From: Geotalea uraniireducens Rf4
GTDB lineage: Bacteria > Desulfobacterota > Desulfuromonadia > Geobacterales > Geobacteraceae
Reading direction: 5' to 3'
NCBI RefSeq assembly: GCF_000016745.1
Contig: NC_009483.1
Span: forward strand, 4,470,001 to 4,502,000
DNA length: 32,000 nucleotides
Positions 1-31,356 of this stretch are shown here, piece after piece (position 1 is the first letter of the stretch; every line of letters starts with the position of its first letter). The notes under the pieces were generated by a model. It saw nothing but the letters and a program-made list of their open reading frames with translations. It was not told where the DNA came from and made no database searches. A program made the translations under genes and the position numbers.

Positions 1-894
1 ATGGGGAACATTGAAGGCCTCGATGGTCTTGACGACGGCGGTTTTATTGGAGGGTGAAAACACCACGGTATCGCCGACCCGCAGGACTCCGGCAGCAAGC
101 CGGCCGGCAATGATGCGGCGGGCGTCGAACTTGTAGACATCCTGCACCGGAAAGCGGAGCGGCAGGTCTTCGCCGGTCGGCAGCTTCTCAAAGAGACCGA
201 GGCTTTCCAATACCGTAGACCCCCGATACCATGGCATGGCATCACTGCGCCGCACCACGTTGTCGCCGTTCCTGGCGCTGGCTGGGATAAACTGCTGCGG
301 CGAGACGCCCACCCCCTTCAGGAATGCCCCGTACTCTTCGACGATGGCGTTAAAGACCTGCTCGTCATAGCCGACCAAGTCCATCTTGTTGACGACCACC
401 GCAATCTGCCGGATCCCCAGGAGACTGAGCATGTAGCCGTGGCGCCGCGACTGTTCGCGCACCCCTTCGGCAGCATCGATGATCAGCACCGCCGCCTCGG
501 CCCTGGCAGCGCCCGAAATCATGTTTTTCAGGAACTCCTTATGCCCCGGCGCATCTATTATTATATACTGCCGGTTTTCCCAGGAAAAAAAGGTGCGGGC
601 GGTATCGATGGTAATCCCCTGCTCCTGCTCTTCGAGAAATGCATCAAAGAGGAAGGCGTACTCAAATGCCTTTCCCTGTTGCTCGCAGATGGCGCGGACC
701 TTCTCCAGCTGCCCATCGGGAAGGGAATCGGTGTCCGCGTAGATGCGCCCGAGAAGGGTGGACTTGCCGTGGTCCACGTGACCGACTATTACTACGGTGA
801 AGGCGGTCGATGGTGGATGGTGGATGGTCGATGGTGGATGGTCGATAGTCGTTGGTGGATGGTCATTTGTTGATGGGCTCACGCTATTTTTCAT
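1..894 (-). CDS. cysN: sulfate adenylyltransferase subunit 1 (CysN-type GTPase); 3' end runs off the window
   Basis: Absent from the ORF track because it is truncated. My minus-strand translation reads [51 protein letters not shown]...[11 protein letters not shown]...VVNKMDLVG, which carries the G1/G3/G4 GTPase motifs. It lies directly downstream of cysD. ATG at 894-892, alternative GTG at 882. There is no in-frame start codon downstream of the heptamer array. Confidence 0.85.
802..864 (-). repeat. tandem heptamer array, 9 units (plus strand GGCGGTC GATGGTG GATGGTG GATGGTC ...); translated as the CysN N-terminal tail
   Basis: Period-7 repeat read directly. It is inverted relative to the array at 1287-1413. 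Three heptamers make one 7-aa repeat ([21 protein letters not shown]). Confidence 0.9.
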
Positions 895-1255
895 ATTTGA
901 CTCTCAGTGATTTTATGAGCGCATTGAGCTGCTTGCGGATGACTACGGTTTCTCCGAGTAGTGTCTCAGCTTCAACTGCATACCCCAGTTTTTGTGCAAC
1001 AATCAATTGGGTCTCAAGTTCGGCAGCAGAACCACCGGCAATGGATAAGAATCGGATAAACTCCCGATTGCCTTGCCTTCCTGCCCCTTCGGCAATGTTC
1101 GAAGCGATTGAGACCACTGACCGCTTAATCTGGTCGGCCAGACCAAAGTGCTCATCCAGAGGGAATTTTTGAAGTATTCCATAAACAGACACTGCCAGAT
1201 TGACTGAACGCTGCCAGACATCAAGTTCCTTATAGTCCCTTATTTTCTCCACCAT
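884..1255 (-). CDS. four-helix-bundle protein (23S rRNA intervening-sequence protein / Avd-like family)
   Basis: 123-aa ORF. The motif [36 protein letters not shown] is the signature I associate with the TIGR02436/PF05635 family. Its stop overlaps the cysN ATG by 11 nt. Confidence 0.85.
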
Positions 1256-1286
1256 TCACCGCCTTTACCTTTACCATACCTTTACA

Positions 1287-1413
1287 CATCATCTGTCATC
1301 CGTCATCCGCCATCCGCCATCCGCCACCGACCACCGACCACCGACCATCGACCACCGACCATCGACCGCCGTTCAGCCATCGACCGCCGTTCAGCCATCG
1401 ACCACCGACCGCC
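1287..1413 (-). repeat. tandem heptamer array, about 18 units (plus strand CATCCGC/CACCGAC/CATCGAC types, with an internal 17-nt sub-repeat x2)
   Basis: Period-7 repeat that fills the whole spacer between the cysD stop (1416-1418) and the four-helix-bundle ORF. It is complementary in type to the array at 802-864. Confidence 0.9.
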
Positions 1414-1415
1414 TC

Positions 1416-2213
1416 TCACATATACCCATCCTTCCTCAGCTTCTCCATCCCCCGGTCCGCATCCTGTGCCCTGCCGGAGCGTTCCGCAACCTTTGTGTTG
1501 CGCAGTTCCGCGATGATTTCATCCACATTCTTCGCCTTCGATTGAATGGTGCCGGTACAGGGCGCGCAACCGAGACTTCGATAGCGGGTCCCGTTCCCCT
1601 GGTCAAAATAGAGCGGGATGACCGGAATATTTTCTTTCTTGATGTATTCCCAGATATTGATCTCGGTCCAATCCAGGAGGGGATGGATCCGGACATGGGT
1701 GCCCGGCTCGAACCGGGTTTTGAACTGGTCCCACAACTCGGGTGGCTGCTCGCGGAAATCCCAGTCGTTGTTCTTGTCACGGGGAGAAAAATAACGCTCC
1801 TTTGCCCTGGTTCCTTCCTCATCGGAACGGACGCCGACAATGACCCCGTTGTACCCCTTATCGGCAAGGGTTCGGCTCAAGCCTTCGGTTTTAAGTGCGG
1901 TGCAGCACTCCATTCTACCCAGGGAAGGGTTCATGCCAGCCTCAAGGGCTTGCCGGTTCTGCCCCACCACCAGGGTCAAGCCCCATTCCTCGGCCAGCCT
2001 GTCACGGTAGGCGATCATCTCCCGGATCTTGAAGGAGGTATCGATATGCACCAAAGGTATCGGGCAATGGCCGAAAAACGCCTTCCGCACCAGCCAGAGC
2101 ATAACCGTCGAATCCTTGCCGATGGACCAGAGCATGCAAAGGTTGTCGAAATTCTTGTAAGCTTCGCGCAATATATATATGGATTTGTCTTCCAGCTCTT
2201 CGAGATGCTTCAT
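1416..2213 (-). CDS. cysD: sulfate adenylyltransferase subunit 2 (CysD, PAPS-reductase/ATP-PPase fold)
   Basis: [22 protein letters not shown]...[13 protein letters not shown] (SxGKDS PP-loop)...[12 protein letters not shown] place the start at Met31 of the track ORF (2213), because the upstream 30 codons are heptamer-array sequence. Confidence 0.9.
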
Positions 2214-2224
2214 GGGTAACCCCT

Positions 2225-2253
2225 GTCGGCGGTCGGTGGTCGGCGGTCGATAG
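2225..2253 (-). repeat. heptamer array, 4 units (plus strand GTCGGCG GTCGGTG GTCGGCG GTCGATA), immediately upstream of the cysD start
   Basis: Read directly. 2241-2253 is the perfect reverse complement of 2331-2343. Confidence 0.85.
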
Positions 2254-2319
2254 CAAAACTGCCGCACCCCATACACCACCAACCAAATATATTCAATCAC
2301 CAACCTGTTTTATACCATT

Positions 2320-2405
2320 CCGACTATCGACTATCGACCGCCGTCCGCCGTCAACCGTCCGCCGTCAACCGTCCGCCGTCAACCGTCCGCCGTCTGCCGA
2401 CCGCC
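2320..2405 (-). repeat. heptamer/14-mer array, about 12 units (plus strand CGACTAT x2, then CGTCCGC CGTCAAC x3-4), covering the cysC stop
   Basis: Read directly. The last about 13 codons of cysC ([10 protein letters not shown]) are encoded by the array. Confidence 0.9.
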
Positions 2406-2991
2406 TTTCGACAAACCTGATGATCGCAGCAACGGATTCTTCCACACCAAGGCGGCAGGTATCGATCACCAGTTCGGGGGCTTGCGGTTCTTCATACGGG
2501 CTGTCTATGCCGGTGAACTGTGGTAATTGGCCGGCCCTGGCCTTGCGGTAGAGCCCCTTTGGGTCGCGGCTCTCGCAGGTATCCAGATCGCATTTGACAT
2601 AGATCTCGATAAATTCGGCGGGCTCGAAAAGGGCCCGCACCCGATCCCTGTCTTCCTGGTATGGAGAGATGAAAGCAGCCAGGACGACGATTCCCGCATC
2701 GACGAAAAGCTTCGCCACTTCGCCGATACGCCGGATGTTCTCGCGACGGTCCGCTTCAGAGAAGCCGAGATCGCTGTTCAGGCCATGACGCATGTTATCG
2801 CCGTCGAGAATATAGGTGTAGCACCCTTTTTTGAAGAGCGCCTCTTCAGCCGCGTGGGCGAGCGTCGACTTGCCGGACCCGGAAAGGCCGGTAAACCACA
2901 CGACCAACGGTCGATGACCGTTGCGGTCGTAATAATCGGCTTTTGTGAGGGAGCGACTATGCCAGACAATATTCAAACCATTTTCAGCCAT
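2365..2991 (-). CDS. cysC: adenylylsulfate (APS) kinase
   Basis: P-loop GLSGSGKST and [18 protein letters not shown], typical of CysC. The ATG at 2991 has a GGAG 8 nt upstream and is preferred over the GTG at 3006. Confidence 0.9.
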
Positions 2992-3198
2992 AAATAATTT
3001 CTCCACTAATGACCAGTTTTTGCTCAGCCGTATTTATCATGCTTGAAATATAAATATTAAATCAACCACAAAAAAAACTCCAGCATTATGAATTTCTCAC
3101 CGATGCGCGACTACGGAATCAGGAAAAACCATTTCAGAACAGGAGCGCTGATTGGGCCGAAAAGGCTTTTAATCACCGGCCGATTATGCTATTAATTT

Positions 3199-3222: not shown

Positions 3223-3271
3223 CCACGATGCACAAGATGAACACCTCGAAAAGATTCAACCATCAACCCCA

Positions 3272-3361: not shown

Positions 3362-5185
3362 ATGTATTTCAGACTCATTACAGGCCTCATAGGTATGCTT
3401 ATGTGTGCAACTTTCGCCAATGCGGCGCCATACGCATACATCACAAACCTCAGTGATAACACCGTATCGGTGATCGATGTCGCAACGAACGGCTATATCA
3501 GTAAAATACCCTTGGGGACCGGCGTGAAGCCATACGGCGTGGCGATCAGCAGTGACGGCACACGCGTCTATATATCCAATCAGACCAGTAAAACCATTTC
3601 GGTTATTGACGCATTGACCGATCCGAGCAACCCGTCGGTCATCAATACGATCAGCCTGCCGAACACACCCAGCGGTTTAGCTGTCAACTCCGCGGGAACG
3701 CGGCTCTATGTGGCAAACTATGACGCCATGTCCGTTTCGGTAATTGACCTCACGGCTCCTACACCCAACATAATCGCATCCCCCGGCGTCGGAACGGCAC
3801 CGATCGGTGTGGCCATCAGCCCGGACGGCGCAACCGTTTACGTGACAAATTCCGGCAGCGACAACATTACTGCCGTAAAAACGTCTGACAATACCGTATT
3901 AACAACGTTTTCGGCAGGTCCGGCAGGTAACGCCCCGATGGGGATCGCCCTTGGAAAAGTAGGGACCGTAACCAAAATTTATGTCGCAAACAATACGGCC
4001 AACTCCCTTACGGTTATCAACGAGTCCACCAAGGCCATAACCAACACCGTTCCGCTTGGCACAGACTCTGCGCCTTTCGCTGTTGCAGCCAAGCCTGACG
4101 GCAGCACAGTGTACGTTACCAAATCGGGTGCGGCAACCAACGGCGGCGACAGCGTGGCCGTTATCGACACCTCTACCTTCACGGTAACAACCGCCATAAG
4201 CGTCGGAGCCATGCCGTTCGGCGTTGCCGTATCACCCGACGGCTTCCGCGTCCTGGCAGTGAATAACATGGGCAACAGCGTCTCCGTCATCAACACAAGC
4301 TCAAACGCTGTTGCAGCCACACTGGGCAATATTCCTGATACCAGCTACGCAAGCTTTTTCCAATCCCCGCAGAGTCTGGGCAACTTCATCGGCCCGCAAC
4401 TGTACGCGATCGAAGCAAGTGCAGGCGCCAACGGCACCATTACGCCGGCCGGAACCATATTGAAAGCCGATGGAACCAGCCAGACTTTCACGTTTACCCC
4501 CGCGGTCAACTACCGCATCGACAAGATAAATGTGGACGGAAGCATCGTCTCGCCAACGCCGACCGCCGGCTACACTTTCAACGCGATAACAGCAGCGCAC
4601 ATTATTACGGCGACTTTCATCAAGGATGATTATTACGTTTCCATCACCAAAACCGGCACTGCAAGCGGCACGGTTACCAGTACGGATATCCCTAGCACTA
4701 TCAACTGCGGTGCAACATGCGACGGTACGTTTAGCAACGGTACCACTGTCACTCTCACCGCCGTTCCCGATGCCGGTAAATATTTTGCCGGGTGGATCGG
4801 CGACAGCACCGCACCCGGCGTCAGCGTGTGCGACGGCGTGACGTCCACCACATGCACCTTCACCATGACCGCCTACACCCATGTAACCGCGAATTTCTCC
4901 GCTACAGAGTTATCTAACAAGGTGAAGATGATGCCACAGGGCAGCTTCTTTTCCACCCTCCAGGCCGCCTTTGACGCTGTAACACCAACCACGACCACGA
5001 TCATGACCACCATCGAGTCGTTTAGCGAAACGCTCAACCTAAACAAAGCCGGTACAACGTTTACATTGAGCGGCGGCTGGCTCGACAGAACATATACGTC
5101 ACGTGGGACGGCTCCAAGCGTGTATCAGGGATCACTGACCATTACCAACGGCACCTTGATCGCCGACAATATCGCCATCAAATAG
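3362..5185 (+). CDS. secreted YVTN-family beta-propeller repeat protein with C-terminal bacterial (InlB-B-like) repeat domains
   Basis: Strong SD (GAGGAGGA). Signal peptide ...CATFANA/AP. Repeated about 40-aa units (VYVTNSGSDNITAV, VYVANNTANSLTVI, VYVTKSG...). Later GTVTSTDIPSTINCGATCDGTFSNGTTVTLTAVPDAGKYFAGW. Confidence 0.8.
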   Translation: MYFRLITGLIGMLMCATFANAAPYAYITNLSDNTVSVIDVATNGYISKIPLGTGVKPYGVAISSDGTRVYISNQTSKTISVIDALTDPSNPSVINTISLPNTPSGLAVNSAGTRLYVANYDAMSVSVIDLTAPTPNIIASPGVGTAPIGVAISPDGATVYVTNSGSDNITAVKTSDNTVLTTFSAGPAGNAPMGIALGKVGTVTKIYVANNTANSLTVINESTKAITNTVPLGTDSAPFAVAAKPDGSTVYVTKSGAATNGGDSVAVIDTSTFTVTTAISVGAMPFGVAVSPDGFRVLAVNNMGNSVSVINTSSNAVAATLGNIPDTSYASFFQSPQSLGNFIGPQLYAIEASAGANGTITPAGTILKADGTSQTFTFTPAVNYRIDKINVDGSIVSPTPTAGYTFNAITAAHIITATFIKDDYYVSITKTGTASGTVTSTDIPSTINCGATCDGTFSNGTTVTLTAVPDAGKYFAGWIGDSTAPGVSVCDGVTSTTCTFTMTAYTHVTANFSATELSNKVKMMPQGSFFSTLQAAFDAVTPTTTTIMTTIESFSETLNLNKAGTTFTLSGGWLDRTYTSRGTAPSVYQGSLTITNGTLIADNIAIK

Positions 5186-5210
5186 CAGTCAACTTAAACA
5201 TAAACAGATA

Positions 5211-5245
5211 AAAAGGGCGGTCAATTAATGACCGCCCTTTTTTTA
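5211..5245 (+). terminator. rho-independent terminator
   Basis: GGGCGGTC-loop-GACCGCCC followed by TTTTTTT, 26 nt after the stop. Confidence 0.85.
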
Positions 5246-5481
5246 TTCAGTTTCAGCGTTGTCCGGTTTGGTTTTTGCTTACGTCCCGTAGGGACAGAAT
5301 ACTGGTAGCCGGGGAATTCATTCCCCGGTCATCCAGGCGAAATATCATCACGTCACGTACGTGACGTGGGGAAATATAGCATCTCATCCGGGGGATGAAT
5401 CCCCCGGCTACATTCGAACGCCCCTAATGGGGCTTAACAACCTTGATGCACAAACCAAACCGGACAACGCTGATTCAGTTT
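5245..5481. mobile_element. MITE-like element: 219-bp body (5254-5472) with perfect 21-bp terminal inverted repeats, flanked by a 9-bp direct repeat
   Basis: TIR CAGCGTTGTCCGGTTTGGTTT (5254-5274) is the reverse complement of 5452-5472. ATTCAGTTT occurs at 5245-5253 and 5473-5481. No ORF inside. The interior is a pseudo-palindrome of five hairpins. Confidence 0.6.
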
Positions 5482-5508: not shown

Positions 5509-5604
5509 CTCACTCCTCACTCCTCACTCCTCACTCCTCACTCCTCACTCCTCACTCCTCACTCCTCACTCCTCACTCCTCACTCCTCACTTCTCACTTC
5601 TCAC
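5509..5604 (-). repeat. tandem heptamer array, 13-14 units (plus strand CTCACTC x11, CTCACTT x2; minus strand GGAGTGA)
   Basis: Perfect period-7 run. The stop codon and last 6 codons of the glycosyltransferase at 5587..6804 lie inside it. Confidence 0.95.
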
Positions 5605-6804
5605 GGCCTTTAAAATTCCCCGGTAGATTTCCAGAAGCGTCTCTCCCCTGGCCCGCCATGAATGGTCACGCTCCGCCTTCTCACGGACTTTCCTGGCAAA
5701 CGATTCCCGGCCGGCTTTATCGGCAGCCAGCTCTTCAATCCGGGTCGCCAAATCTGCCGCATCCGCAAAGCGCGCATAGACGCCGGCATCACCTAGAATT
5801 TCCCGGTTTATCGGCGTATCGAAAACCACCGTAGGCAGAGCGCACGCCATGTAGTTGAACAGCTTGCCGTTCGCCTCTGTCAGCGATATTTTCGGTGAGA
5901 CGGCGATATCACAGGCTGACAGATATAATGGCGCCTCCGCATAGTCAATCCTGCCGGTAAAGCTGACCATTTCATCCAGACCCAATTCCCTGCATTTATG
6001 GATGTATTGATCCTCAGGGAACCCCATGATCAGAAAATGAATTTGCCCCTTTCGCTCACGCAGAAGCGCAATGGATTCCAAAAGGATGTCTATCCCCTGA
6101 TAACGGTTAAGTAGCCCGAGAAAAGCAACGATAGGCACATCCAATGGGAGTTGCAGCGCACTGCGACATTCGTTTTTTTCGTAAGGGCGAAATACCGCTG
6201 TGTCCACACCATCGATAACGGCTTTAACCTTATGGTCAGGCACCTGCCAATGGGTGACAAGGTCGTGGGCGCCGGCACTGGAACTGGTAATAATAAAATC
6301 AGCCGAATTATTTATGAAATGCTCCAGGGCCGCGAAGCACTTCGCCAAGATGGAGCCGTCATTTATAAAACCATGGTCGGTTATTTCTGCCGTCAAACTC
6401 CCCTGACAATCGAAGATCAAGGGGACGCCCAGCATTTTTTTAAGGAAATAGCCGACGAAAGCGCCTTCGTGAAGGTGCGCATGGATAATGTCCGGAGCAA
6501 ACGACCTTGCTACCTGAAGCGCTTTGAAGAACAGCAGGATGTCGAGATAAGGCTTGTGCCAGGAAGGGCCGGCGGTGAGCTTTTTGTACCAGGGAACCGT
6601 GCAAATCCGGTAGGTGGGGATGCCCGGCATGTCACGCCCCAGATGGTAGGTGACGATGCGCACGTCAACGCCCTGTGATTGCAAGGTCCGGGCTTCTTCA
6701 TAGATACGGACATGACACCCCCGGTCCGAGAAATATGGTGTAGGGGCAAGCATCAATACTTTGAGCTTGCATTCAACCAAGGTTGATCTTTTCCTTGACG
6801 ACAT
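5587..6804 (-). CDS. GT4-family glycosyltransferase
   Basis: 405-aa ORF with KVLMLAPTPYF near the N-terminus and a GT-B-type C-terminal half (...VSPKISLTEANGKLFNYMACALP...). Alternative starts are TTG 6780 (overlapping the upstream stop) and ATG 6753. Confidence 0.75.
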   Translation of the reverse strand: MSSRKRSTLVECKLKVLMLAPTPYFSDRGCHVRIYEEARTLQSQGVDVRIVTYHLGRDMPGIPTYRICTVPWYKKLTAGPSWHKPYLDILLFFKALQVARSFAPDIIHAHLHEGAFVGYFLKKMLGVPLIFDCQGSLTAEITDHGFINDGSILAKCFAALEHFINNSADFIITSSSAGAHDLVTHWQVPDHKVKAVIDGVDTAVFRPYEKNECRSALQLPLDVPIVAFLGLLNRYQGIDILLESIALLRERKGQIHFLIMGFPEDQYIHKCRELGLDEMVSFTGRIDYAEAPLYLSACDIAVSPKISLTEANGKLFNYMACALPTVVFDTPINREILGDAGVYARFADAADLATRIEELAADKAGRESFARKVREKAERDHSWRARGETLLEIYRGILKAVRSEK

Positions 6805-12467: not shown

Positions 12468-12589
12468 CAATCCTTACGCACGTTAACCAACCAATTTCAT
12501 TACAGTATTGTTTATTTACGCTACATACCAACCGGTCATTTCGCCAGCCCACCGATTAACGCAGGCTAATTGACAGTCATTTCACGGCG

Positions 12590-13672: not shown

Positions 13673-13744
13673 AATTTCTCCTTTTTTACAGCATCAGTTA
13701 GATAATTGCACTGACATCAAAAGCTGTGAAAACTATCTTTTTTG

Positions 13745-13855
13745 CACCCTCCCCCAGCCCCTCCCATCGAAGGGAGGGGAGCTTTTATTCCCTCTCCCTT
13801 GGCGGACCCAAATTGCGGGCCTAAAGGAGAGGGCCAGGGAGAGGAGGGAATGTGT
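13745..13855. repeat. GC-rich nested hairpin element (CCCCTCCC-atcgaa-GGGAGGGG; ATTCCCTCTCCC...GGGAGAGGAGGGAAT)
   Basis: Inverted repeats read directly in the 225-nt spacer between the 8-haem cytochrome gene and the NHL gene. REP-like appearance. Confidence 0.5.
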
Positions 13856-13897
13856 CGGCCTTTTTATTTTCTGAAGAAGAGTAAGTGACGACCAACT

Positions 13898-14890: not shown

Positions 14891-14974
14891 AGTAACTCCT
14901 CTTGACGGCAACGAATGGGTGACCAACCGTGGACGGGTCACAGCCCGACGTTGAATAAACCCCGCTTGCTTCTA

Positions 14975-15970: not shown

Positions 15971-16067
15971 AGACCGATTCCATCGCCATTATTTAATGAA
16001 TGGATAAAAGATTGACCGGACTGTTCCCGTTGCGACCGTACAGAAAACCTTTCATTATCCACCGTGA

Positions 16068-16916: not shown

Positions 16917-16988
16917 CGTTCTTTCCTCCGCAGTTATTGCAATTGGGGGTTTTTAAAGTTCTGTGGCCGGTCAAAATATCGATAGATA

Positions 16989-21112: not shown

Positions 21113-21122
21113 GGTAAGGTGC

Positions 21123-23984
21123 TTACATTATTACAGGATTGCCAGCAAGGGAGTTGTTAGTCTCATCGGACTCGGGGACTTGATTGGTGTAGTCCGCATA
21201 GGCGCCGATGTAATAGTTTCCGGGCGGTAGATTTGGCGGGACCGAGCGGGTTCCGGTAAGAACGACTTCACTGTTGCCAGGAATATTGGCCCAATTTGCG
21301 TCGATAAGATAATCACTGGTAGTTATGGCAGCGTCAGAGGAGATATAGATGGCGGTTGGAAAAGCGTAATTTCCGGCCACACCGTTACCGACATTTTTAA
21401 CAGTCACTGAATAGGTTACTTTGCCGTTCGCCACGGTGCCAGACACGGCGGTTACAATGAGGTCATTGTTGATATATGGCTGGTTGCCAGCAAGGGAGTT
21501 GTTAGTCTCATCGGACTCGGGGACTTGATTGGTGTAGTCCGCATAGGCGCCGATGTAATAGTTTCCGGGCGGTAGATTTGGCGGGACCGAGCGGGTTCCG
21601 GTAAGAACGACTTCACTGTTGCCAGGAATATTGGTCCAATTTGCGTCGATAAGATAATCACTGGTAGTTATGGCAGCGTCAGAGGAGATATAGATGGCGG
21701 TAGGAAAAGCGTAATTTCCGGCCACACCGTTACCGACATTTTTAACAGTCACTGAATAGGTTACTTTGCCGTTCGCCACGGTGCCAGACACGGCGGTTAC
21801 AATGAGGTCGTTGTTGATATATGGCTGGTTGCCAGCAAGGGAGTTGTTAGTCTCATCGGACTCGGGGACTTGATTGGTGTAGTCTGCATAGGCGCCGATG
21901 TAGTAGTTTCCTGGCGGTAGATTTGGCGGGACCGAGCGGGTTCCGGTAAGAATGACTTCGCTGTTGCCAGGAATATGGGCATAATTTGCGTCGATAAGAT
22001 AATCACTGGTAGTTATGGCAGCGTCAGAGGAGATATAGATGGCGGTAGGAAAAGCGTAATTTCCGGCCACACCGTTACCGACATTTTTAACAGTCACTGA
22101 ATAGGTTACTTTGCCGTTCGCCACGGTGCCAGACACGGCGGTTACAATGAGGTCGTTGTTGATATATGGCTGGTTGCCAGCAAGGGAGTTGTTAGTCTCA
22201 TCAAACTCTGGGACTTGATTGGTGTAGTCTGCATAGGCGCCGATGTAGTAGTTTCCTGGCGGTAGATTTGGCGGGACCGAGCGGGTTCCGGTAAGAATGA
22301 CTTCGCTGTTGCCAGGAATATGGGCATAATTTGCGTCGATAAGATAATCACTGGTAGTTATGGCAGCGTCAGAGGAGATATAGATGGCGGTAGGGAAAGC
22401 GTAATTTCCGGCAGCATTTATGCCTCGATTTTGTATCGTTACAGAATACGTCAGCTTCCCGCCGCTGACAGTACCTGAAACATTCTTCACCACCAAGTCG
22501 GGCTGTACGGAGGAGATTGTTATATTATTCCCCAGTTTGGTATTATTAGTTTCATCCCCTTCTACAACAAGATTTGTGTAATCAGCAATAGCCTTCAAAT
22601 AGTAATCGCCAGTCTTGCAAGCCGTTGGAATAATTACTGTGATGCTGCCGGTATCAGGTGTCTTCGGAGCAAGAGATGTGACGGTTCTTTCACCCAAATA
22701 GCAGCTCGTCCCTTTCAAATCGTCGAGATAAATCCCAATTTTGAAAGCAGTGGCTGAGTCAGTCCCTTTGTTGAATGCAGTGGTGGATATTGTAACAGAA
22801 TTACCGATCACCCCCGTTGCAGGACCGCTGACATCGGTGATTTCCAGATCAGTATACGATTCGTAAGCCAGGGTTACGGCATGGAGTACCGGAGTTGTCA
22901 TGTCGCTTGATGAAAGCTTTAATCGCAGTTCCGCAACATGAGCGTACTGGATATTCAAATCAATGCTCGTGGTTTTGGTTTGGATGCCGTTGACCACGGG
23001 TCCGTCGACCGTAGTTGCACCGGAGGTTGTGAGGTCGTACCATGTGTCGGCGCTGCCATCGGGTCCCAGGTACTGGGCACTTTCAAGGGAGGTCAAGTCT
23101 TGAGCGGTTCTGACCTGAAACTGGATTTTCTGACCAGTTGTAAGCTCGTCGTAGTTCCAGGAAAGATGCGCCTTGTCGAAAGGGGCGACCCCGGTGACCC
23201 GGAGCCCACTGAGCATGCTCACCACCGGCTCGATCTCCAGTGATTTCTCAACCTGGTTCGACGCCCCGTCAATGACCGACACGACATTGTTGAATTTGTT
23301 GGTCAGGTAGACCTTGTTGGTGGCCAAGTTATAGGATGCGGTGTAAGGGCCAGCAATCACCTGCACCGTTGCAATGACGGTATCACTGATCCCGTCGAGA
23401 ACGGAAACCGTCTGGTCGGTCATGTTGGCGATGTAGACCTTGTTGTTGGTCGGGTTGTAAAGAGCAGCATTGGCGCCATTGCCAACGGTCACGGTTGCAA
23501 TTACCGTATCAGTGACACAGTCGATGACCGACACCTTGTTGTCGTTGTAGTATCCCACATAGAGCTTGTTATTTACTGAATTGTAAACAGCTCCCGAAGG
23601 TTGCGCCGGTAATGGTATCGAAGGAAGCAACTCTTTCGTCGTTGCGTTAATGACGGCGACGGAGTTCCTTTCCGCCCCAATGGTATAGACTTTGTTGTTC
23701 GAAGTGTTATTGATGATCGTCGCAGTGCTCAACAAATCCTTCGGAATGCCGATTTTCACATCACCAGAAACTGTTGTGGTGTCAATGTTTACGCGCGTTG
23801 TAGGAGTGTTTGTCGTAGAAGCATTGTTTTCAAAATCTGGTTGAGTTGTCCATGTTACTGATGACATTGCTGCACACGCCGGTTGCGCAATACTGCCGGC
23901 TGCTACCGTTAGGCTGACAATTAGCAGGATAATTGTCAGTAGCTGTAACGGTAATTTTTTTAAATTTCCCCAATGATAACCCAT
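21123..23984 (-). CDS. secreted surface protein: YVTN beta-propeller + unknown beta-rich domain + five CARDB-like domains
   Basis: Start placed at MGYHWGNLKKLPLQLLTIILLIVSL... (AAGGAGGG SD; the track ORF starts 90 nt upstream). Signal peptide ...AQPACA. YVTN-type repeats (KVYIANMTDQTVSVLD etc.). C-terminal domains show the CARDB pattern DL.V..VSG...G....V.V.N.G......YIS.D...........G.YY..A.AD....V.E.DETNN. Confidence 0.8.
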   Translation of the reverse strand: MGYHWGNLKKLPLQLLTIILLIVSLTVAAGSIAQPACAAMSSVTWTTQPDFENNASTTNTPTTRVNIDTTTVSGDVKIGIPKDLLSTATIINNTSNNKVYTIGAERNSVAVINATTKELLPSIPLPAQPSGAVYNSVNNKLYVGYYNDNKVSVIDCVTDTVIATVTVGNGANAALYNPTNNKVYIANMTDQTVSVLDGISDTVIATVQVIAGPYTASYNLATNKVYLTNKFNNVVSVIDGASNQVEKSLEIEPVVSMLSGLRVTGVAPFDKAHLSWNYDELTTGQKIQFQVRTAQDLTSLESAQYLGPDGSADTWYDLTTSGATTVDGPVVNGIQTKTTSIDLNIQYAHVAELRLKLSSSDMTTPVLHAVTLAYESYTDLEITDVSGPATGVIGNSVTISTTAFNKGTDSATAFKIGIYLDDLKGTSCYLGERTVTSLAPKTPDTGSITVIIPTACKTGDYYLKAIADYTNLVVEGDETNNTKLGNNITISSVQPDLVVKNVSGTVSGGKLTYSVTIQNRGINAAGNYAFPTAIYISSDAAITTSDYLIDANYAHIPGNSEVILTGTRSVPPNLPPGNYYIGAYADYTNQVPEFDETNNSLAGNQPYINNDLIVTAVSGTVANGKVTYSVTVKNVGNGVAGNYAFPTAIYISSDAAITTSDYLIDANYAHIPGNSEVILTGTRSVPPNLPPGNYYIGAYADYTNQVPESDETNNSLAGNQPYINNDLIVTAVSGTVANGKVTYSVTVKNVGNGVAGNYAFPTAIYISSDAAITTSDYLIDANWTNIPGNSEVVLTGTRSVPPNLPPGNYYIGAYADYTNQVPESDETNNSLAGNQPYINNDLIVTAVSGTVANGKVTYSVTVKNVGNGVAGNYAFPTAIYISSDAAITTSDYLIDANWANIPGNSEVVLTGTRSVPPNLPPGNYYIGAYADYTNQVPESDETNNSLAGNPVIM
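21139..22518 (-). repeat. four tandem 345-bp (115-codon) repeats, nearly identical
   Basis: The same string TTGCCAGCAAGGGAGTTGTT recurs at 21139, 21484, 21829 and 22174, exactly 345 nt apart. Copies 1/2 and copies 3/4 form two sub-pairs that differ by only a handful of substitutions (WANIPG/WTNIPG versus YAHIPG). The 5'-most part of copy 4 diverges. Confidence 0.95.
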
Positions 23985-24073
23985 TTCAATAAACCCTCCT
24001 TTTTTGATTTGGACGCCGAGTATATCGGAATTATGGCGGCCGCTCTTTATTAGCGAGGGTTTATAACACACCA

Positions 24074-24101
24074 CATATTATTATGTACACATAATAATAT
24101 G
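24074..24101. promoter_or_regulatory. 28-bp AT-rich perfect palindrome CATATTATTATGT-AC-ACATAATAATATG
   Basis: Read directly, 90-117 nt upstream of the start of the CARDB-repeat gene. Candidate operator overlapping the promoter. Confidence 0.35.
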
Positions 24102-26032: not shown

Positions 26033-27316
26033 CTATGCACCGTTTTGCAACTTTGGGAAATTCATGTGCTCGAGAAAGTGTTTCTCGAAGGCAGGTGTGC
26101 CTGACAGGGGGATAACCTTGATTGACTCGGCAAGCCTGTCCAGAGCAGCAAAGTCGTCGCCTGCGCAGATCGCCTTTTCCACGCCGCGCAAAGCCCCCTC
26201 ATGGACAAACCCGGCATTTTTTACCATGTTTTCACTGAAAATTCCAACGTTTTTTAGATGTTCAGGAGAGAGTATCGCGCCGAAAGAACCGGTCAGTACG
26301 ACTTCCTGAATTGAGTCGCCCGATATGCCGGCGCGCTGGAGCAGGACTTCCATCCCGGCCCTGATCGCCCCCTTTGCCAGTTGCACCTGGCGGATATCGC
26401 CCTGGCTTAGATAGATGGTGCGCCTCGCGTCGCGGTAAAACACAAAGCCGGTTTCCCCGTCCACGTTCCGGACATGATTGGCCAGGTTGGAGGGAATTTC
26501 ATCTGCTTCGAGCAGCCTGCCGCTCTGATCGAGTATTCCCGCTTCAAGCAGTCCGGCCACGGCGGCGATGACCCCTGAACCGCAGATTCCGGTCGGCGCT
26601 TCATTGCCGATGGTGGCAATCCCGACCTTATCGCCGGCAAAGCTTACTCCGCTTATTGCCCCCGGCAGAGCAGCCATGCCGCACGCCAGGTTCCCCCCCT
26701 CGAAGGCTGGACCGGCGGCGGCGGAAGTTGCATAAATTTTTCCTCCGGCCACAAGGGCAAGCTCGCCATTTGTGCCGAGATCCAGATAAAGACGTGCTGC
26801 GTGCTGCGTGCTGTGTGCTGCGCAAACGCCTTCGCCGTAGAGAAAGGCCACCAGGTCGCCGCCGACGAATCCGCCCGGCAGGGGGAAAATATATGCATCC
26901 AGATCCAGGCCCCAGCCGAGGGAGGCGGTAGTCATGGTTTTGCCGGCAGAAAAAAGTGGGCGGTAGGGGGGGAAGGCAAGGGATTTCACGGAAAGCCCCA
27001 GGAGCAGGTGTTCTATGGCCGGATTCCCGGCAATCCCTATGCAACGCAAATCGCGGCGGGCTGCGCCGCAGTCGTCGAGGAGTTTTACGGTCAAGCGTTC
27101 CAGCTCGGCATTGATGAGCTTGCTCATCCTGAAGAGGTTATCAGCGGAGCTTACCGCCGCGGCAAGGCGCGACACCACATCCGCGCCGAATTCCCGCTGC
27201 GGATTGAGGCTGCCAGTCATCGCCAATCGCTCACCGCTTTCGCAGTCCAGAAGCGATGCGGCAATGGTCGTGGTGCCCACATCAATGGCGACTGCGACAG
27301 GCTTAGACAATTTCAA
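26033..27316 (-). CDS. ASKHA-fold ATPase, DUF4445 / RACo C-terminal-domain-like, lacking a ferredoxin domain
   Basis: [19 protein letters not shown] and GICGSG motifs, as in the ATPase part of corrinoid reductive activators. No Cys-cluster N-domain. I prefer the TTG at 27316 (GGGAG 7 nt upstream, 14-nt overlap with the selD end) over the track start at 27388. Confidence 0.6.
26794..26821 (-). repeat. four tandem heptamers (plus strand GTGCTGC GTGCTGC GTGCTGT GTGCTGC) inside the coding sequence
   Basis: Read directly. They encode [11 protein letters not shown] immediately before the LDLGTNGE motif. Confidence 0.85.
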
Positions 27317-28343
27317 GTGCAGACTCCCGGCGTGGCAGCACCTCGCCGACAGAGACGGCAAAACAGCCGATCTCGGCCGCTCGGGCAAGGAACAGTTCGG
27401 CAGATGTCGGAGCGAGTGATATCAACAGGCCTCCGGAGGTCTGGGGATCGAACAGCGGCAAGAGGGCATCGGCAGGAATGCTGCCGCAATTTAAAAATCG
27501 TGAATAGTGATCGCGATTGCGGTAGCAACCAGCGGGAACCAACCCGTCCCTGATCAGTTCATCAACACCGGCCATGAGCGGAACCTTGGCAGGATCGAGG
27601 CGGATCGTCACTCCCGCCCCCACGGCCATCTCGCAGGCATGACCGATAAGGCCGAAACCGGTCACGTCGGTGGCTGCGCTTGCCCCGCATTCCAGCATCA
27701 GCTCTGCGGCAATACTGTTCAACATCGTCATCCACCCTATCGCTGCGTCCGCTACGCCGGCGGACACCATGTCAGCCTTGATCGCCGTGGAAACAATGCC
27801 GGTGCCGAGCGGTTTGGTAAGGAGCAGCCGGTCACCGGCACGGGCGGTGGAGTTTCTGACGATTTGTTCGGGATCTATGAGCCCGGTGACAGCCAGTCCG
27901 TACTTCAGCTCTGCGTCTTCCACCGTATGTCCGCCGACCAGGCAGGCGCCCGCCTCACTGATGGCGGCCTGGCCGCCGGCAAGAATCCGGGAGAGGACCT
28001 CGCCGGGAAGGTCGCAGGCCGGGAAAAACACCAGGTTCATTGCGGTCACCGGTTTCCCCCCCATGGCATAGATATCGGATATGGCATTGGCCGCAGCGAT
28101 ACGACCGAACGTGAAGGGATCGTCCACGAGGGGGGTGATGATATCGGTCGTCTCCACCAGGGCGAGCCTCTCCCCTATCCGGTAGACACCGGCGTCGTCG
28201 GCTGTATCGGCCCCCACGAGGAGGTCCGGATCATCCGCCTGCACAAGGCCGCTCAAAGCTTTTTCAAGGCCCGCCGGGCCCAGCTTTGCCGCTCAACCGG
28301 CGGCTTTCACCATTGCGGTCAGTTTGATCTTCTTATTGGTCAT
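27303..28343 (-). CDS. selD: selenide, water dikinase (selenophosphate synthetase) with in-frame UGA = selenocysteine at codon 17
   Basis: The track ORF starts at 28256. Reading upstream in the same frame gives [35 protein letters not shown]..., where TGA (28295-28293) occupies the catalytic Cys/Sec position of SelD (G-[CU]-x-x-K). The downstream sequence has typical PurM-like SelD domains. Confidence 0.8.
28254..28288 (-). promoter_or_regulatory. candidate bacterial SECIS hairpin
   Basis: It starts 7 nt 3' of the UGA. Outer stem CAAAGCU/AGCUUUG (perfect 7 bp), inner stem GGCCC-GGC-GGGCC. Confidence 0.55.
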
Positions 28344-28350
28344 TTTCCCC

Positions 28351-28399
28351 CACTCACTACTCACTACTCACTACTCACTACTCACTACTCACTACTCAC
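28351..28399 (-). repeat. tandem heptamer array, 7 units (plus strand CACTCAC then TACTCAC x6; minus strand GTGAGTA)
   Basis: It fills the alr-selD spacer. The alr stop TGA (28398-28396) is part of the first unit on the minus strand, and the array ends 7 nt before the selD ATG. Confidence 0.95.
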
Positions 28400-29550
28400 G
28401 GAATATACACTCTCGGCACCCGTTTGCTGATGCCGCAGAATATCTCGTAGGCAATGGTACCGGACCATGCGGCCAGCTCTTCGGCATGGATGCAGTTGCC
28501 TTGATTGTCGCAGCCAAGGAGCGTCACCTCATCGCCGACAGCAACACCGGCGATATCGGTCACGTCAAGCATGATCCAGTCCATGCAGACCGTCCCGGCC
28601 ACCCGCGCCCGCTGCCCGCGAACCAACGCCTCCCCCTTGTTGGTAAGGGCACGGCAGTAGCCGTCGGCGTATCCTACCGGGACGCTCGCAACGAGGGTTT
28701 TCTTTCCCGCCACATAACGCCTGGCATAGCTGATGCTGGTGCCGGGCTCCACCCACTTGAGCATCGCCACCCGGCTCTTCAGCCGCATTACCGGCTTCAC
28801 ATCGATTTTCCCCTGAAAATCGGCGGAGGGAAGCGCGCCGTAGAGGACGATGCCGGGCCGGGCCAGATTGCAGAAAGGAAAATCCCTGCTGAAGGCAGCG
28901 GCGCTGTTGGCGATATGAACGAAGGTGGGGGAAAACCCCTGGCGAGTGCCCTCCTGCAAAACCGCGGCAAAGATTTCGGTCTGGCGGGCGGTGTAACCGC
29001 TCCCTTCGTCGTCCAGTTCGTCGGCCGAGGCGAAGTGGGAGAAGATACCTTCCAATTCAAGGTTTTTCAACTTTTTCAGCTCCCGGAAGAATGCGGGGGC
29101 CTCCTCGTAACGTATCCCCAAGCGCCCCATGCCTGTATCGACCTTGAGATGGATTTTTGCCTTGCGATACAGCTTTCGGGCAACGTCATCGAGCACCCGC
29201 GCCTGATCCAGGCTGAAGACCGCCGTGGAGATGTTGAAGCCGACGCACTTCTTCTCCTGTCCCGGATATATACCGCCGAGAAGTAGGATCGGCCTGTCGA
29301 TGCCGCTCTTCCTGAGCTGAATCCCCTCCGCAAGAAAGGCGACGCCAAAGGCCGTCACGCCGAGCGCCTCCAGTTCACGGGAGATATCCATAAAACCGTG
29401 GCCGTAGGCATCGGCCTTGACCACCGCCAGCAGTCCGCTGCCGGCGGGCACCGCTTTTTTTACCTGGTAATAGTTGTGCCGCAGGGCGGCAAGGTCGATT
29501 TCCGCAATGGTCGGGCGACTATCCAGGTTCAACACATTTAAACGCTCCAT
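28396..29550 (-). CDS. alr: alanine racemase
   Basis: [15 protein letters not shown]...[11 protein letters not shown] (PLP-lysine motif)...VPVGYADGY... The ATG at 29550 is preferred to the GTG at 29583. Confidence 0.9.
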
Positions 29551-29674
29551 ATCTACTCTCGACACCCGCTGTTCACCTCTCACCGTTTATCTACCACTTC
29601 TCTCATAAGCTGTAAAGGCAAAATCCCGAAAATACATTGACTTATCGGGAATTTTACTTTAGCCTAAGGCAAAA

Positions 29675-29768
29675 TTGCCAGCTAGGGGAGTTCGCAAGAA
29701 CTGAGATGGGCCTTGCCCAAACCCTTTGAACCTGATCCGGTTGATCCCGGCGTAGGAAAGCGGCCAGA
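29675..29768 (+). promoter_or_regulatory. TPP (THI-box) riboswitch
   Basis: CTAGGGGAG...CTGAGA...ACCCTTTGAACCTGATCCGGTTGATCCCGGCGTAGGAAAG matches the conserved TPP aptamer core. Confidence 0.9.
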
Positions 29769-29788
29769 GTGAGACTCTTTATTCCTGG

Positions 29789-29818
29789 AAAGCCGCGACC
29801 ATTAGTCGCGGCTTTTTG
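29789..29818 (+). terminator. intrinsic terminator (riboswitch expression platform)
   Basis: AAAGCCGCGAC-catta-GTCGCGGCTTTTT, directly after the aptamer. Confidence 0.8.
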
Positions 29819-29856
29819 CGATTTTACACCCTCTTACAGTGCTTCCCCCATAGGTT

Positions 29857-31356
29857 TTGCCCATGGAACACAAAAAAGATTTTCTCCGCCTCGTGGTAGA
29901 CCGGGAAACGACCGATTCCCCGATTAAAGGGGTTTATCTCATTACCGACCATGCCGACCACCTGACAGAAAGGGTACGGGGCGCCCTCTCCGGCGGCGTA
30001 ACCGTCCTCCAGTACCGCAACAAGATGGGCGATGCCGAGGACAAATTCACCGTGGGCATGGAGTTGAAAACCATTTGCGCCGAAGCGGGGATCACTTTCA
30101 TCGTCAACGACGATCTGGAATTAGCCAGAGAACTCGACGCGGACGGCCTCCACCTGGGGCAGGAAGACGGCGATCCGATTGGAGCCCGCAAACTGCTCGG
30201 ACCGCGGAAAATCATCGGCGTCTCCACCCACAACCTGGAGGAAGCGCTGCGGGCGGAAGCCGCCGGAGCCGACTACATCGGCTTTGGCGCCATGTACCCC
30301 ACCGGGAGCAAGGATATCGAGCATCTCCCCGGACCCGACATGCTTGTCGAGGTCAAGGCGAAGGTCAAGATCCCCGTGGTGGCCATCGGCGGCATCAACC
30401 GGGACAACGGGGCACGGGTAATCGACAACGGCGCAGACGCCGTTGCGGTCATCTCCGGCATACTCGGTAGCAGAGAGCCGGGGCTGGCGGCGGCCGAACT
30501 GTCGCTTCTCTTCAACCGCAAGGGGGCCTTTCCGCGCGGCAATGTCTTGACCATCGCCGGCAGCGACTCCGGCGGCGGGGCCGGCATCCAGGCCGACCTC
30601 AAGACCGTAACCCTGCTCGGCTCTTACGGCGCCTCGGTAATCACCGCACTCACCGCCCAGAACACCCGCGGGGTGAGCGCCATTCACGGCGTGCCTCCCG
30701 AGTTTGTCGCAGAGCAGCTCGATGCGGTACTTTCCGACATCAGGATCGACGTGGTCAAGACCGGTATGCTCTTTTCCGCGGAAATAATCAGCGTCATTGC
30801 CGACAAGCTGGGCGAATACAACAGGAAAATAGTGGTCATCGATCCGGTAATGCTGGCCAAGGGGGGAGCGGAGCTCATTGACCATGAGGCCCTGGCCATA
30901 TTCAAAAAGCGGCTTATGGCCGCGGCCTATCTCCTCACTCCGAACATCCCGGAGGCGGAAAAGCTGACCGGCATCGCTATCAGCAATGAAGATGGGATGG
31001 AGCAGGCAGCCCGCGCCATCTGCAGTATGGGGGCAAGAAATGTACTGATAAAAGGGGGGCACCTCCCCGAAGGGATTGCCGTGGACATCCTCTATGACGG
31101 CAGCGCTTTCACCCGCTTCCCCGTGCCGCGCATCCTCACCAAGAACACCCACGGCACCGGCTGCACCCTGGCTTCAGCCATCGCCGCGTTCCTCGCCCAA
31201 GGGGAACCGCTGCCGGTTGCAATCGCCAAAGCCAAGGAATTCATCACCACCGCCATAAAACTCGCCCAACCGCTGGGCAAGGGACATGGCCCGGTGAACC
31301 ATTACAGAGCAGCATGCGAACTTCGGGACTTGGGACCTGGGACCAGGGATCGGTAA
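29857..31356 (+). CDS. thiE/thiD: bifunctional thiamine-phosphate synthase (ThiE, N-terminal) / hydroxymethylpyrimidine-phosphate kinase (ThiD, C-terminal)
   Basis: N-terminal half: VYLITD...LQYRNK...VSTHN...GAMYPT...AIGGI. C-terminal half: VLTIAGSDSGGGAGIQADLKT...GTGCTLASAIAA. Start is TTG 29857 or ATG 29863. Confidence 0.88.
   Translation: MPMEHKKDFLRLVVDRETTDSPIKGVYLITDHADHLTERVRGALSGGVTVLQYRNKMGDAEDKFTVGMELKTICAEAGITFIVNDDLELARELDADGLHLGQEDGDPIGARKLLGPRKIIGVSTHNLEEALRAEAAGADYIGFGAMYPTGSKDIEHLPGPDMLVEVKAKVKIPVVAIGGINRDNGARVIDNGADAVAVISGILGSREPGLAAAELSLLFNRKGAFPRGNVLTIAGSDSGGGAGIQADLKTVTLLGSYGASVITALTAQNTRGVSAIHGVPPEFVAEQLDAVLSDIRIDVVKTGMLFSAEIISVIADKLGEYNRKIVVIDPVMLAKGGAELIDHEALAIFKKRLMAAAYLLTPNIPEAEKLTGIAISNEDGMEQAARAICSMGARNVLIKGGHLPEGIAVDILYDGSAFTRFPVPRILTKNTHGTGCTLASAIAAFLAQGEPLPVAIAKAKEFITTAIKLAQPLGKGHGPVNHYRAACELRDLGPGTRDR
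31324..31351 (+). repeat. four tandem heptamers (CGGGACT TGGGACC TGGGACC AGGGATC) at the 3' end of thiE/thiD
   Basis: Read directly. They encode the C-terminal tail RDLGPGTRDR, just before the stop. Confidence 0.8.

Follow-up and report, generated by a model that had tools for sequence, protein, structure and literature searches.

Heptanucleotide arrays and a PF05635 gene at the cysC-cysD-cysN junctions

The stretch of Geotalea uraniireducens Rf4 DNA analyzed here (the window, 32,000 nt in full) carries eight tandem arrays with a period of 7 nt, each recovered by Tandem Repeats Finder (TRF) and also read in the sequence. The alanine racemase it encodes matches that of Rf4 at 100% identity, and by its cysD the window belongs to the Geobacteraceae. 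Two inverted pairs of arrays lie at the ends of cysD, and one of these pairs encloses a gene for a four-helix-bundle protein (PF05635/TIGR02436; S23p, Avd-like), which we call IVP. An earlier, sequence-only reading of the window had located all eight arrays to within a few bases and had correctly named the genes beside them: cysN, cysD, cysC, a family 4 glycosyltransferase gene (GT4), a gene for a RACo-like (DUF4445-type) protein, alr, selD and thiE/thiD. It overlooked the PF05635 gene at 884-1255, between cysD and cysN, and the reverse-complement relation of 805-864 to 1289-1413 and of 2225-2253 to 2321-2405. The features of this part of the window are as follows; gene names here and below come from Pfam/NCBIfam profile matches.

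<1-873, minus strand: cysN (Pfam/NCBIfam)
805-864, minus strand: C/A-rich arm of the IVP module (TRF), sense units ATCCACC/ATCGACC with a 21-nt super-period
884-1255, minus strand: IVP (PF05635/TIGR02436)
1289-1413, minus strand: G-rich arm of the IVP module (TRF), sense units GGTCGGT/GGTCGAT/GGCGGAT plus an 18-nt sub-repeat
1416-2213, minus strand: cysD (Pfam/NCBIfam)
2225-2253 (2225-2249 by TRF), minus strand: C-rich arm of the gene-less pair
2254-2320, minus strand: 67-nt spacer of the gene-less pair (from the sequence), in the place that IVP has in the other module
2321-2405, minus strand: G-rich arm of the gene-less pair (TRF), sense units GGCGGAC/GGTTGAC with a 14-nt super-period
2365-3006, minus strand: cysC (Pfam/NCBIfam)

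In the mRNA sense, the IVP module starts with the cysD stop codon (1416-1418), followed by 2 nt, about 125 nt of G-rich heptamers (1289-1413), a ribosome-binding site (RBS), the IVP open reading frame (ORF), 10 nt and the cysN GTG start codon (871-873). From this GTG the frame runs through 60 nt of C/A-rich heptamers into the conserved G-domain, the array at 805-864 lying inside the 5' coding end of cysN and encoding about 20 Pro/Thr/His-rich residues. The CysN profiles start at residue 25-28, and in the window there is no other in-frame cysN start between the array and the P-loop. Two further repeats are found in the module: an 18-nt unit, CCATCGACCGCCGTTCAG, present 2.7 times with 96% matches within the G-rich arm (1359-1407), and a 6-nt CCTTTA-type repeat at 1262-1285, directly upstream of the IVP start.

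The IVP protein (123 aa) matches Pfam PF05635 with E=1.1e-34 and TIGR02436 with E=6.9e-36. Against PDB entry 2GSC, which holds five chains of XCC0516, the match is E=2.5e-22.

The arm at 805-864 is complementary to 1310-1370 over 61 nt (80%). When the RNA of the module is folded, a single terminal stem pairs both arrays, from the cysD stop codon to the 5' end of cysN, with a minimum free energy of -252 kcal/mol versus -204 kcal/mol for shuffled sequences (z -6.9). The pair between cysC and cysD has no gene inside; its arms, 2214-2253 and 2331-2370, are complementary over 40 nt (73%) and its fold is less distinctive (z -2.5). The C-rich array of this pair ends 11 nt upstream of the cysD ATG (2211-2213). 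Its G-rich array includes the cysC stop codon (2365-2367) and encodes the final 13 or so residues of CysC, whose APS-kinase domain stops at residue 182 of 213 (Pfam).

Number and placement of period-7 arrays in the window

Period 7 accounts for 11 of the 22 TRF rows of the window. As controls we used 1.32 Mb of loci from other taxa that lack IVP. At a TRF score of at least 40 there are 7 period-7 arrays in the window (0.22/kb) versus 4 in the controls (0.003/kb), an approximately 72-fold difference; at a score of at least 50 the counts are 6 and 1. Periods 5, 6 and 8-11 show no excess, with 1 window array in all at a score of at least 40. Shuffles preserving dinucleotide content (n=100) gave a mean of 0.6 and a maximum of 3 arrays at the lowest threshold. 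Seven of the eight window arrays span a gene terminus or lie no more than 12 nt from one, compared with 0.93 expected (P < 5e-5; the maximum among 20,000 random placements was 5 arrays at termini). Intergenic DNA makes up 12% of the window. The earlier statement that the density and placement of the arrays are not random is thus borne out. Like sequences of the short tandemly repeated repetitive (STRR) kind, the window arrays combine a period-7 excess and closeness to ORF ends with lineage-restricted, length-variable sites.

One control locus, a contig of Candidatus Muiribacterium halophilum, has 11 period-7 arrays in 13.6 kb, and the stretch of it that was retrieved holds no IVP gene. No other locus among the 78 control loci is array-rich.

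IVP genes between complementary arrays in other bacteria

The layout of a G/T-rich array, IVP and a complementary C/A-rich array is, as judged from the sequences compared, general and found in at least four bacterial phyla. In Xanthomonas campestris, accB is followed by a GGGAATC array, IVP and CCCATTC units that run into the accC ATG. This IVP is a homolog of the crystallized XCC0516 (PDB 2GSC), a homopentamer according to the literature, and the GGGAATC array before it was described by Rehm 2015 (PMC4692102). On a Nostoc edaphicum plasmid (locus L171, 343-3354) the order is nrdB, (AGTAGGG)7.9, IVP, (TCCCTAC)4.9 and nrdA, with IVP antisense to the operon. Anabaena sp. 90 has about 270 nt of GGTGACA/GGGAACA units and then IVP between cas6 and cas4, with (CTGTCAC)4.3 inside the 5' end of cas4. 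Calothrix has TTAGCTG and AGCTAAA arrays, and its IVP is also antisense to the host operon. In a Bacteroidota-like contig (locus L164, 8986-12850) IVP lies between nrdB and nrdA and shares the operon's strand. The cassette site thus appears typically to fall between genes for two subunits of one essential enzyme. Both the Bacteroidota-like contig and the N. edaphicum plasmid hold IVP at the junction of the small and large ribonucleotide reductase subunit genes, which may reflect a recurrent target or a coincidence.

We also assembled a sample of 80 metagenomic IVP loci, the best 80 of about 600 matches to a single peptide pattern, S[IV][PA]SNIAEG. They form 79 independent clusters with a median pairwise identity of 48% and a GC content of 0.30-0.70. 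TRF returned 200 period-7 rows for these loci and 22 of period 6. A period-7 array lies within 100 nt of IVP in 52 of the 71 eligible loci, on both sides in 26. On the same contigs, array density is 4.2/kb near IVP versus 0.27/kb more than 500 nt away, a difference of about 16-fold. Arrays upstream of IVP have 36% G and 9% C, those downstream 35% C and 8% G. Mutually complementary flanks occur in 33 of 65 loci, compared with 2 of 325 pairs drawn across loci (p = 1e-23). In 21 of the 22 strictly inverted pairs enclosing IVP the G-rich arm comes first (21:1). This handedness is independent of gene orientation because the module reads alike on both strands. A few IVP genes are flanked by 8-nt tandem units (L097, 967-1418; L144, 2845-3775), so the period is not strictly fixed in the family.

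An origin akin to telomere healing, in which the 3' ends of a break are extended by G/T-rich repeats, would explain the handedness and is recorded here only as a note. A test on ORFs for G-rich arrays after stop codons and C-rich arrays before start codons was noisy (53 vs 31; 32 vs 22) and was not used. Co-orientation of neighboring genes (43/23 upstream, 45/11 downstream) is not clearly beyond ordinary gene-strand persistence.

Orphan arrays resemble the arms of the local IVP, as 34% have a unit within one mismatch of those arms versus 4% (p = 2e-11). Where two paralogs occur in one locus, each has its own unit pair. Such sharing would be expected if the arrays were binding sites for a repeat-recognizing protein, most plausibly the pentameric IVP, which would then regulate itself and act post-transcriptionally on genes whose RBS or stop codon carries arrays of that unit. 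The IVP relatives include a toroidal homopentamer, and proteins of the Avd family serve as reverse transcriptase accessory proteins in diversity-generating retroelements (DGRs). Polar motifs are strongly conserved in the family (SNIAEG and E..TQ in the alignment of homologs), the arrays abut RBS, start and stop sites, and a repeat-binding regulator was suggested earlier for TAACTGA repeats (PMC4679880). However, common descent of the arrays would lead to unit sharing just as readily, and this model has no need of complementary inverted arms. The at least four unit families present in 32 kb would require several cognate proteins, while the genes bearing them (cys, alr/selD, thi, GT4) have no common function. 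We therefore consider this explanation rather unlikely.

Solo arrays and the remainder of the window

The other four arrays and the remaining genes of the window are as follows.

3362-5185, plus strand: beta-propeller protein gene (Pfam/NCBIfam)
5509-5604, minus strand: solo array (GGAGTGA)x13.7 (TRF score 178), including the GT4 stop codon (5587-5589)
5587-6804, minus strand: GT4 (Pfam/NCBIfam)
After GT4: glycosyltransferases, multihaem cytochromes, ccsA/resB and pur genes (Pfam/NCBIfam)
26033-27388, minus strand: gene for the RACo-like (DUF4445-type) protein (Pfam/NCBIfam)
26793-26822, minus strand: in-frame array (TRF), sense CAGCACG x4.3, just before the DxGTNGE motif of the RACo-like protein
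27303-28343, minus strand: selD, with an in-frame TGA
28352-28399, minus strand: solo array (GTGAGTA)x6.9 (TRF, 100% matches), filling the alr-selD spacer
28396-29583, minus strand: alr (Pfam/NCBIfam)
29674-29775: thiamine pyrophosphate (TPP) riboswitch (Rfam scan)
29857-31356, plus strand: thiE/D (Pfam/NCBIfam)
31325-31349, plus strand: (GGGACCN)x4 (TRF), encoding the last ThiE/ThiD residues ahead of the stop codon at 31354-31356
31462 onward: thiC (Pfam/NCBIfam)

The sequence-only reading treated the arrays as one family. Instead, the window holds at least four unit families that behave differently. The first (class a) comprises the two inverted pairs, 805-864 with 1289-1413 and 2225-2253 with 2321-2405, all of GGTSGRY-type units. 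Class b consists of the solo arrays 5509-5604 (GGAGTGA) and 28352-28399 (GTGAGTA), which begin on or just before a stop codon and present a stop in every frame. The first unit of the latter contains the alr stop codon (28396-28398) and the array ends 8 nt before the selD ATG (28341-28343). The GGAGTGA unit recurs at a non-orthologous site in Geotalea sp. SG265 and as the IVP arms of a metagenomic locus (L124). Class c is (GGGACCN)4 at 31325-31349. Class d is 26793-26822, which is inserted in frame and falls in a surface loop of the RACo-like protein; by alignment this variable loop is 4 residues longer than in PDB 4C1N.

Low-complexity peptide tails had been predicted from the arrays, and they are indeed translated: the C-termini of CysC, GT4 and ThiDE end within arrays, and the N-terminal extension of CysN is in frame in all four genomes in which it was compared. 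A second statement, that stop-containing units place a stop in all three frames, applies to GGAGTGA and GTGAGTA and fails for the GGTCGAT-type units.

With its four GGG tracts spaced by loops of 4 nt, 31325-31349 is a canonical G-quadruplex motif, and its unit number is fixed at four in three genomes. The arrays could thus act through G-quadruplexes or some other non-B structure, a role suggested for GGGNATC repeats, as related repeats form G-quadruplexes in vitro (Rehm, PMC4692102) and G. metallireducens has 49 elements of four tandem GGGACCG units (Aklujkar 2009, PMC2700814). However, G runs in the other seven window arrays are absent or no longer than GG, A/T-rich IVP arms are numerous elsewhere, and the complementary arm and the gene between the arms would both be left unaccounted for. 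As a general explanation this is very improbable.

Some features of the window lie apart from the arrays. Codon 17 of selD is an in-frame TGA (28293-28295, minus strand) in the context ...KAAG-TGA-AAKLG, consistent with a selenocysteine-containing selenophosphate synthetase. Because of this TGA a mechanical ORF list cuts selD short at 28256. A 345-nt unit is repeated 3.7 times with 98% identity at 21139-22412, within a gene for a 983-aa CARDB-domain protein (21123-24074, minus strand). Rfam and tRNA scans of the window returned the TPP riboswitch alone and nothing at the arrays.

Beside the GT4 array there is a 221-bp insert (5253-5473) with perfect 21-nt terminal inverted repeats (AACCAAACCGGACAACGCTGA) and several short GC hairpins inside; a bidirectional terminator at about 5200-5236 adjoins it. 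In Geotalea sp. SG265 and a related metagenome-assembled genome only about 72 nt are found at this site. The insert agrees in size and repeat length with the Chunjie MITE (a miniature inverted-repeat transposable element) of G. uraniireducens Rf4 as published (178-235 bp with 21-bp terminal inverted repeats). A remnant of IVP beside the GT4 array was considered and ruled out, as the extra DNA is a MITE with 21-nt terminal repeats.

Insertion history and turnover in relatives

The cys junctions were compared with a metagenome-assembled genome (L002), Geotalea sp. SG265 (L003) and a very close relative (L162, with L163 as an independent assembly). In Geomonas and four other Geobacteraceae/δ-proteobacterial genomes, cysC and cysD as well as cysD and cysN overlap by 4 nt, with neither an array nor IVP. 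Both junctions are split by inserted DNA in the window, L002, L003 and L162/L163. The order cysD stop codon, G-rich array, IVP, C-rich array and cysN is common to the window, L002, L003 and L162, and L162 also has the gene-less module between cysC and cysD, its spacer conserved. For the other arrays we used relatives whose alr is 99% (L167), 90% (L168) and, in the case of G. daltonii (L169), 84% identical. L167 and L168 share the alr-selD, RACo-loop and thiDE arrays; G. daltonii lacks them and has an unrelated spacer or tail in their place. Each array tested lacks a counterpart in G. daltonii or Geomonas. On this comparison the arrays appear to be recent, lineage-specific insertions in the G. 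uraniireducens lineage.

The window, L002 and L003 each have an unbroken IVP ORF, with nonsynonymous divergence (dN) of 0.18-0.29. Synonymous sites are saturated at this distance, cysD having a synonymous divergence of about 1.7-2.0 where it can be estimated. Since dN is this low where synonymous sites are saturated, IVP is under purifying selection. The unit family of the arrays is retained at orthologous sites over the same divergence. In the window, L002, L003 and L162 alike, the IVP stop codon overlaps or abuts the cysN start and CysN is in frame through the array, an arrangement indicating that translation of cysN is tightly coupled to that of IVP.

Cassettes also turn over. Between the window and L162, identity is 96-98% in the flanking genes and falls to about 55-75% in the IVP cassettes, which have different units. 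The downstream arm is about 60 nt in the window and about 290 nt in L162, and the upstream arms agree over no more than roughly their first 50 nt. The L163 assembly has the L162 arrangement. To judge from these alignments, the difference represents replacement or greatly accelerated divergence rather than clock-like change. A second IVP in L162 separates the permease gene of an ABC-2 transporter from its ATPase gene.

At 12491-17800, in the part of L162 from cysN to this transporter, there are also small toxin-antitoxin-type genes (DUF2281, PIN, HigB/HTH) that are absent from the L003 counterpart. Long arrays lie at their borders, including (GGGGACT)10.7, (AGAAGTG)18.7 and (ACCGCCG)11.7; cassettes without IVP can thus have arrays at their borders too. 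We take GGGGACT to be the STRR1 unit. A Logan contig (L001, SRR29904084_2482421) matches the window at 100% identity; it stops within a heptamer array at either end and is therefore uninformative on copy number. Arrays fragment short-read assemblies and their abundance is therefore underestimated in such data.

The sequence-only reading had proposed comparing copy numbers among strains, and they do vary. The alr-selD array has 6.9 copies in the window, 2.9 in L167 with nearly identical flanks, and 7.6 of variant units in L168. The GT4-stop array has 13.7 copies in the window and 6.9 in L162, and is missing from L002 and L003. The (GGGACCN)4 array has exactly four units in the window, L167 and L168, and the RACo array is likewise constant in length.

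The same reading had pointed out that adding or removing a 7-nt unit alters the reading frame, and the arrays could accordingly be contingency (phase-variation) switches that turn an adjacent gene on or off by changing frame or spacing. The period is not a multiple of three, one array lies inside the 5' coding region of cysN, copy number varies between strains, and switching by heptameric repeats is known in Haemophilus. Yet we saw no sign of use as a switch. The genes affected encode housekeeping enzymes, the alr-selD difference lies in the non-coding spacer and leaves the RBS unchanged, and the thiDE and RACo arrays keep their length. Given that CysN is in frame in all four genomes and that its array has a 21-nt super-period, only frame-preserving states of cysN are seen. 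We consider phase variation a very unlikely function.

Ordinary slippage could also produce copy-number differences between near-identical strains. The arrays would then be microsatellites of a period favored by the replicative polymerase, and their link to IVP would be secondary, through shared permissive spacers. Many arrays have no IVP nearby, some sit in permissive sites such as the RACo loop and protein tails, and a heptamer excess together with the idea of polymerase slippage is in the literature (PMC4692102, citing Mrazek 2007). Slippage accounts for changes in length but not for the origin of the arrays, their pairing or the enclosed gene. It does not predict the 16-fold concentration of arrays beside IVP, the locus-specific complementarity of the arms or their 21:1 handedness. 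Period 7 is also unremarkable in the 1.32 Mb of IVP-free loci, and the unit family is kept at orthologous sites despite synonymous saturation. As a full account of the arrays, slippage seems unlikely.

A cassette model for the arrays

The explanation we favor, and on balance think probable, is that the arrays are heptanucleotide simple sequence repeats (SSRs), some of which would be the arms of cassettes resembling the intervening sequences (IVSs) of 23S rRNA and others derivatives of such cassettes. It builds on the observed architecture of the module and its generality, the handedness, the selection on IVP, the coupling of cysN to it, the copy-number polymorphism, the insertion history and the cassette turnover. 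Heptamer SSRs would have entered the G. uraniireducens lineage recently and settled where extra DNA is tolerated, namely in the spacers of co-transcribed genes, at protein termini and in a surface loop. Their length would change by slippage. At the IVP module the arrays would be the terminal repeats of a selfish, IVS-like cassette. Their pairing in the transcript could form a long stem, looping out the cassette and offering RNase III a substrate, as in 23S rRNA IVSs. Repeated arms would make this pairing tolerant of register and would supply homology for cassette exchange. By taking over the start of the downstream essential gene, the cassette would become hard to lose. Gene-less inverted pairs and solo arrays may be derivatives of this process, or its seeds.

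Under this model, two suggestions of the sequence-only reading can be placed. The exact positioning of arrays on start and stop codons is real, but it would largely be a by-product of filling the short spacers of formerly overlapping genes with stop-rich units: arrays lie on these codons because insertion is at gene junctions, G/T-rich units have stops in every frame and C/A-rich units have open frames. Among the roles it listed for the arrays, RNA processing would best fit the inverted pairs, given the z of -6.9 for the stem and, by analogy, the RNase III cut in Coxiella.

More tentatively, this class of selfish cassettes, with a gene for an Avd-like pentameric PF05635 protein as their sole gene and complementary arrays as their ends, might itself make and maintain the heptamer excess of certain bacteria, such as the STRRs of cyanobacteria, GGGAATC in Xanthomonas and the arrays of Bacteroidota and Geobacteraceae. 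The protein would bind or anneal the repeats as RNA or DNA, with perhaps one unit per subunit, and would drive insertion and exchange at operon junctions and in rRNA, leaving gene-less pairs and solo arrays behind. We regard this as possible, though doubtful.

Several observations weigh against the cassette model. Only four of the eight window arrays belong to inverted pairs, and the solo arrays seem tied to cassettes by shared unit types alone. In 19 of the 71 eligible IVP loci there is no array at the TRF threshold, and a sample made of the best 80 matches to one pattern is a limit on generality. Among arm mismatches G:U is not favored over A:C (65 vs 96), and the duplex energies of sense and antisense are equal. 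Since both tests were null, nothing in them shows selection on the sense RNA rather than the DNA, and the RNA-level reading would rest on the Coxiella precedent only. A stop-rich upstream arm combined with an open downstream arm is too weak a cause for the handedness (74% vs 53%). The cassette is not highly mobile, as the module was kept at one junction through speciation. The IVP protein has no recognizable catalytic domain and matches no defense-system model in PADLOC. To our knowledge there is neither a mobility mechanism nor an activity for IVP.

The link between repeats and PF05635 gives an uncharacterized protein a defined cis element and an unexplained class of repeats a candidate agent. 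PF05635 has thousands of members and two crystal structures but no known function. Three separate studies of heptamer repeats, in Xanthomonas/Nostoc, Beggiatoaceae and G. metallireducens, reached no mechanism and named no associated gene (PMC4692102, PMC4679880, PMC2700814). The link also offers an explanation for cassettes between genes for the subunits of essential enzymes and inside rRNA. In practice, the arrays break short-read assemblies, extend or truncate annotated housekeeping ORFs and serve as hypervariable strain markers.

Comparison with known systems

Heptameric repeats have been known since 1990 and are over-represented in many bacterial genomes. Heptameric SSRs near ORF ends, with inverted pairs and arrays conserved in site but variable in length, were already reported for the GGGNATC repeats of Xanthomonas and Nostoc, with 70-75 inverted pairs in Xanthomonas (Rehm 2015, PMC4692102). 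TAACTGA repeats lie beside start codons in Beggiatoaceae, Cyanobacteria and Bacteroidetes (MacGregor 2015, PMC4679880). The window arrays share with these SSRs and with the STRRs of Calothrix/Nostoc the period of 7, a mostly intergenic location no more than some tens of bases from ORF ends, a lineage-specific excess, frequent inverted pairs, variation in length and sequence among relatives at conserved sites and occasional intragenic copies, and (GGGACCN)4 matches the four-unit GGGACCG type of G. metallireducens. They differ in having several unit families rather than one dominant unit and in the PF05635 gene between complementary arrays.

A further likeness is to the ORF-bearing IVSs of Leptospira and Coxiella 23S rRNA. 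S23p is PF05635, and its ORF lies within complementary, stem-forming termini, inside a highly expressed and essential transcription unit; these IVSs are regarded as selfish and horizontally acquired. In Coxiella, two to three tandem GACAGAT units, in a number that varies among strains, precede the S23p ATG (Warrier 2016, PMC4990558). RNase III makes the 5' cut at the first heptamer, and the IVS termini form a stem (PMC4990558). This design in rRNA, alike to that of the IVP modules, has been noted for one species. IVP modules differ in being located at mRNA operon junctions (cysD/cysN, accB/accC, nrdB/nrdA, cas6/cas4) and not in helix 45 of 23S rRNA. No rRNA was found in the window by Rfam, and its IVP module lies between cysD and cysN rather than in 23S rRNA helix 45 or 25. 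The arms of IVP modules are heptamer arrays of 30-290 nt in place of the 28-bp unique stem of the IVS, and the downstream arm can be translated within the next gene, unlike in the IVS. The ORF is under purifying selection in the G. uraniireducens module but decaying in Coxiella.

Repetitive extragenic palindromic (REP) elements and their doublets (REPINs), with the REP-associated transposase RAYT, resemble the modules in architecture only, as do MITEs. There too, one gene lies within inverted short repeats that are also scattered near gene ends. Inverted pairs lacking a gene are more numerous than those with one, in analogy to MITEs versus insertion sequences, and the repeat is genome-specific. 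In contrast to REPIN-RAYT, the IVP repeats are tandem heptamers and not palindromic REPs, and the gene encodes a four-helix bundle of about 120 aa with no transposase features. No HUH/Y1 or DDE transposase features were found in IVP, which gave PF05635/TIGR02436 matches only, and a phage collection held no IVP homolog. Target-site duplications were not seen for IVP cassettes; only replacement at a fixed site was observed, as opposed to the transposition of REPINs and MITEs.

The Avd protein of DGRs belongs to a homologous fold and family (PF05635/PF22296, pentameric four-helix bundles), and PF05635 has been recognized both for its likeness to Avd and as the ORF present in some intervening sequences of 23S rRNA. 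The window ORFs scanned yielded no reverse transcriptase domain, nor was a template/variable repeat pair seen. Unlike Avd in DGRs, IVP genes stand alone in housekeeping operons between heptamer arrays. Full-text literature searches returned no published generalization of the link between heptamer arrays and IVP. Heptamer repeats are a known phenomenon, and what is new is their family-wide link to Avd-like genes.

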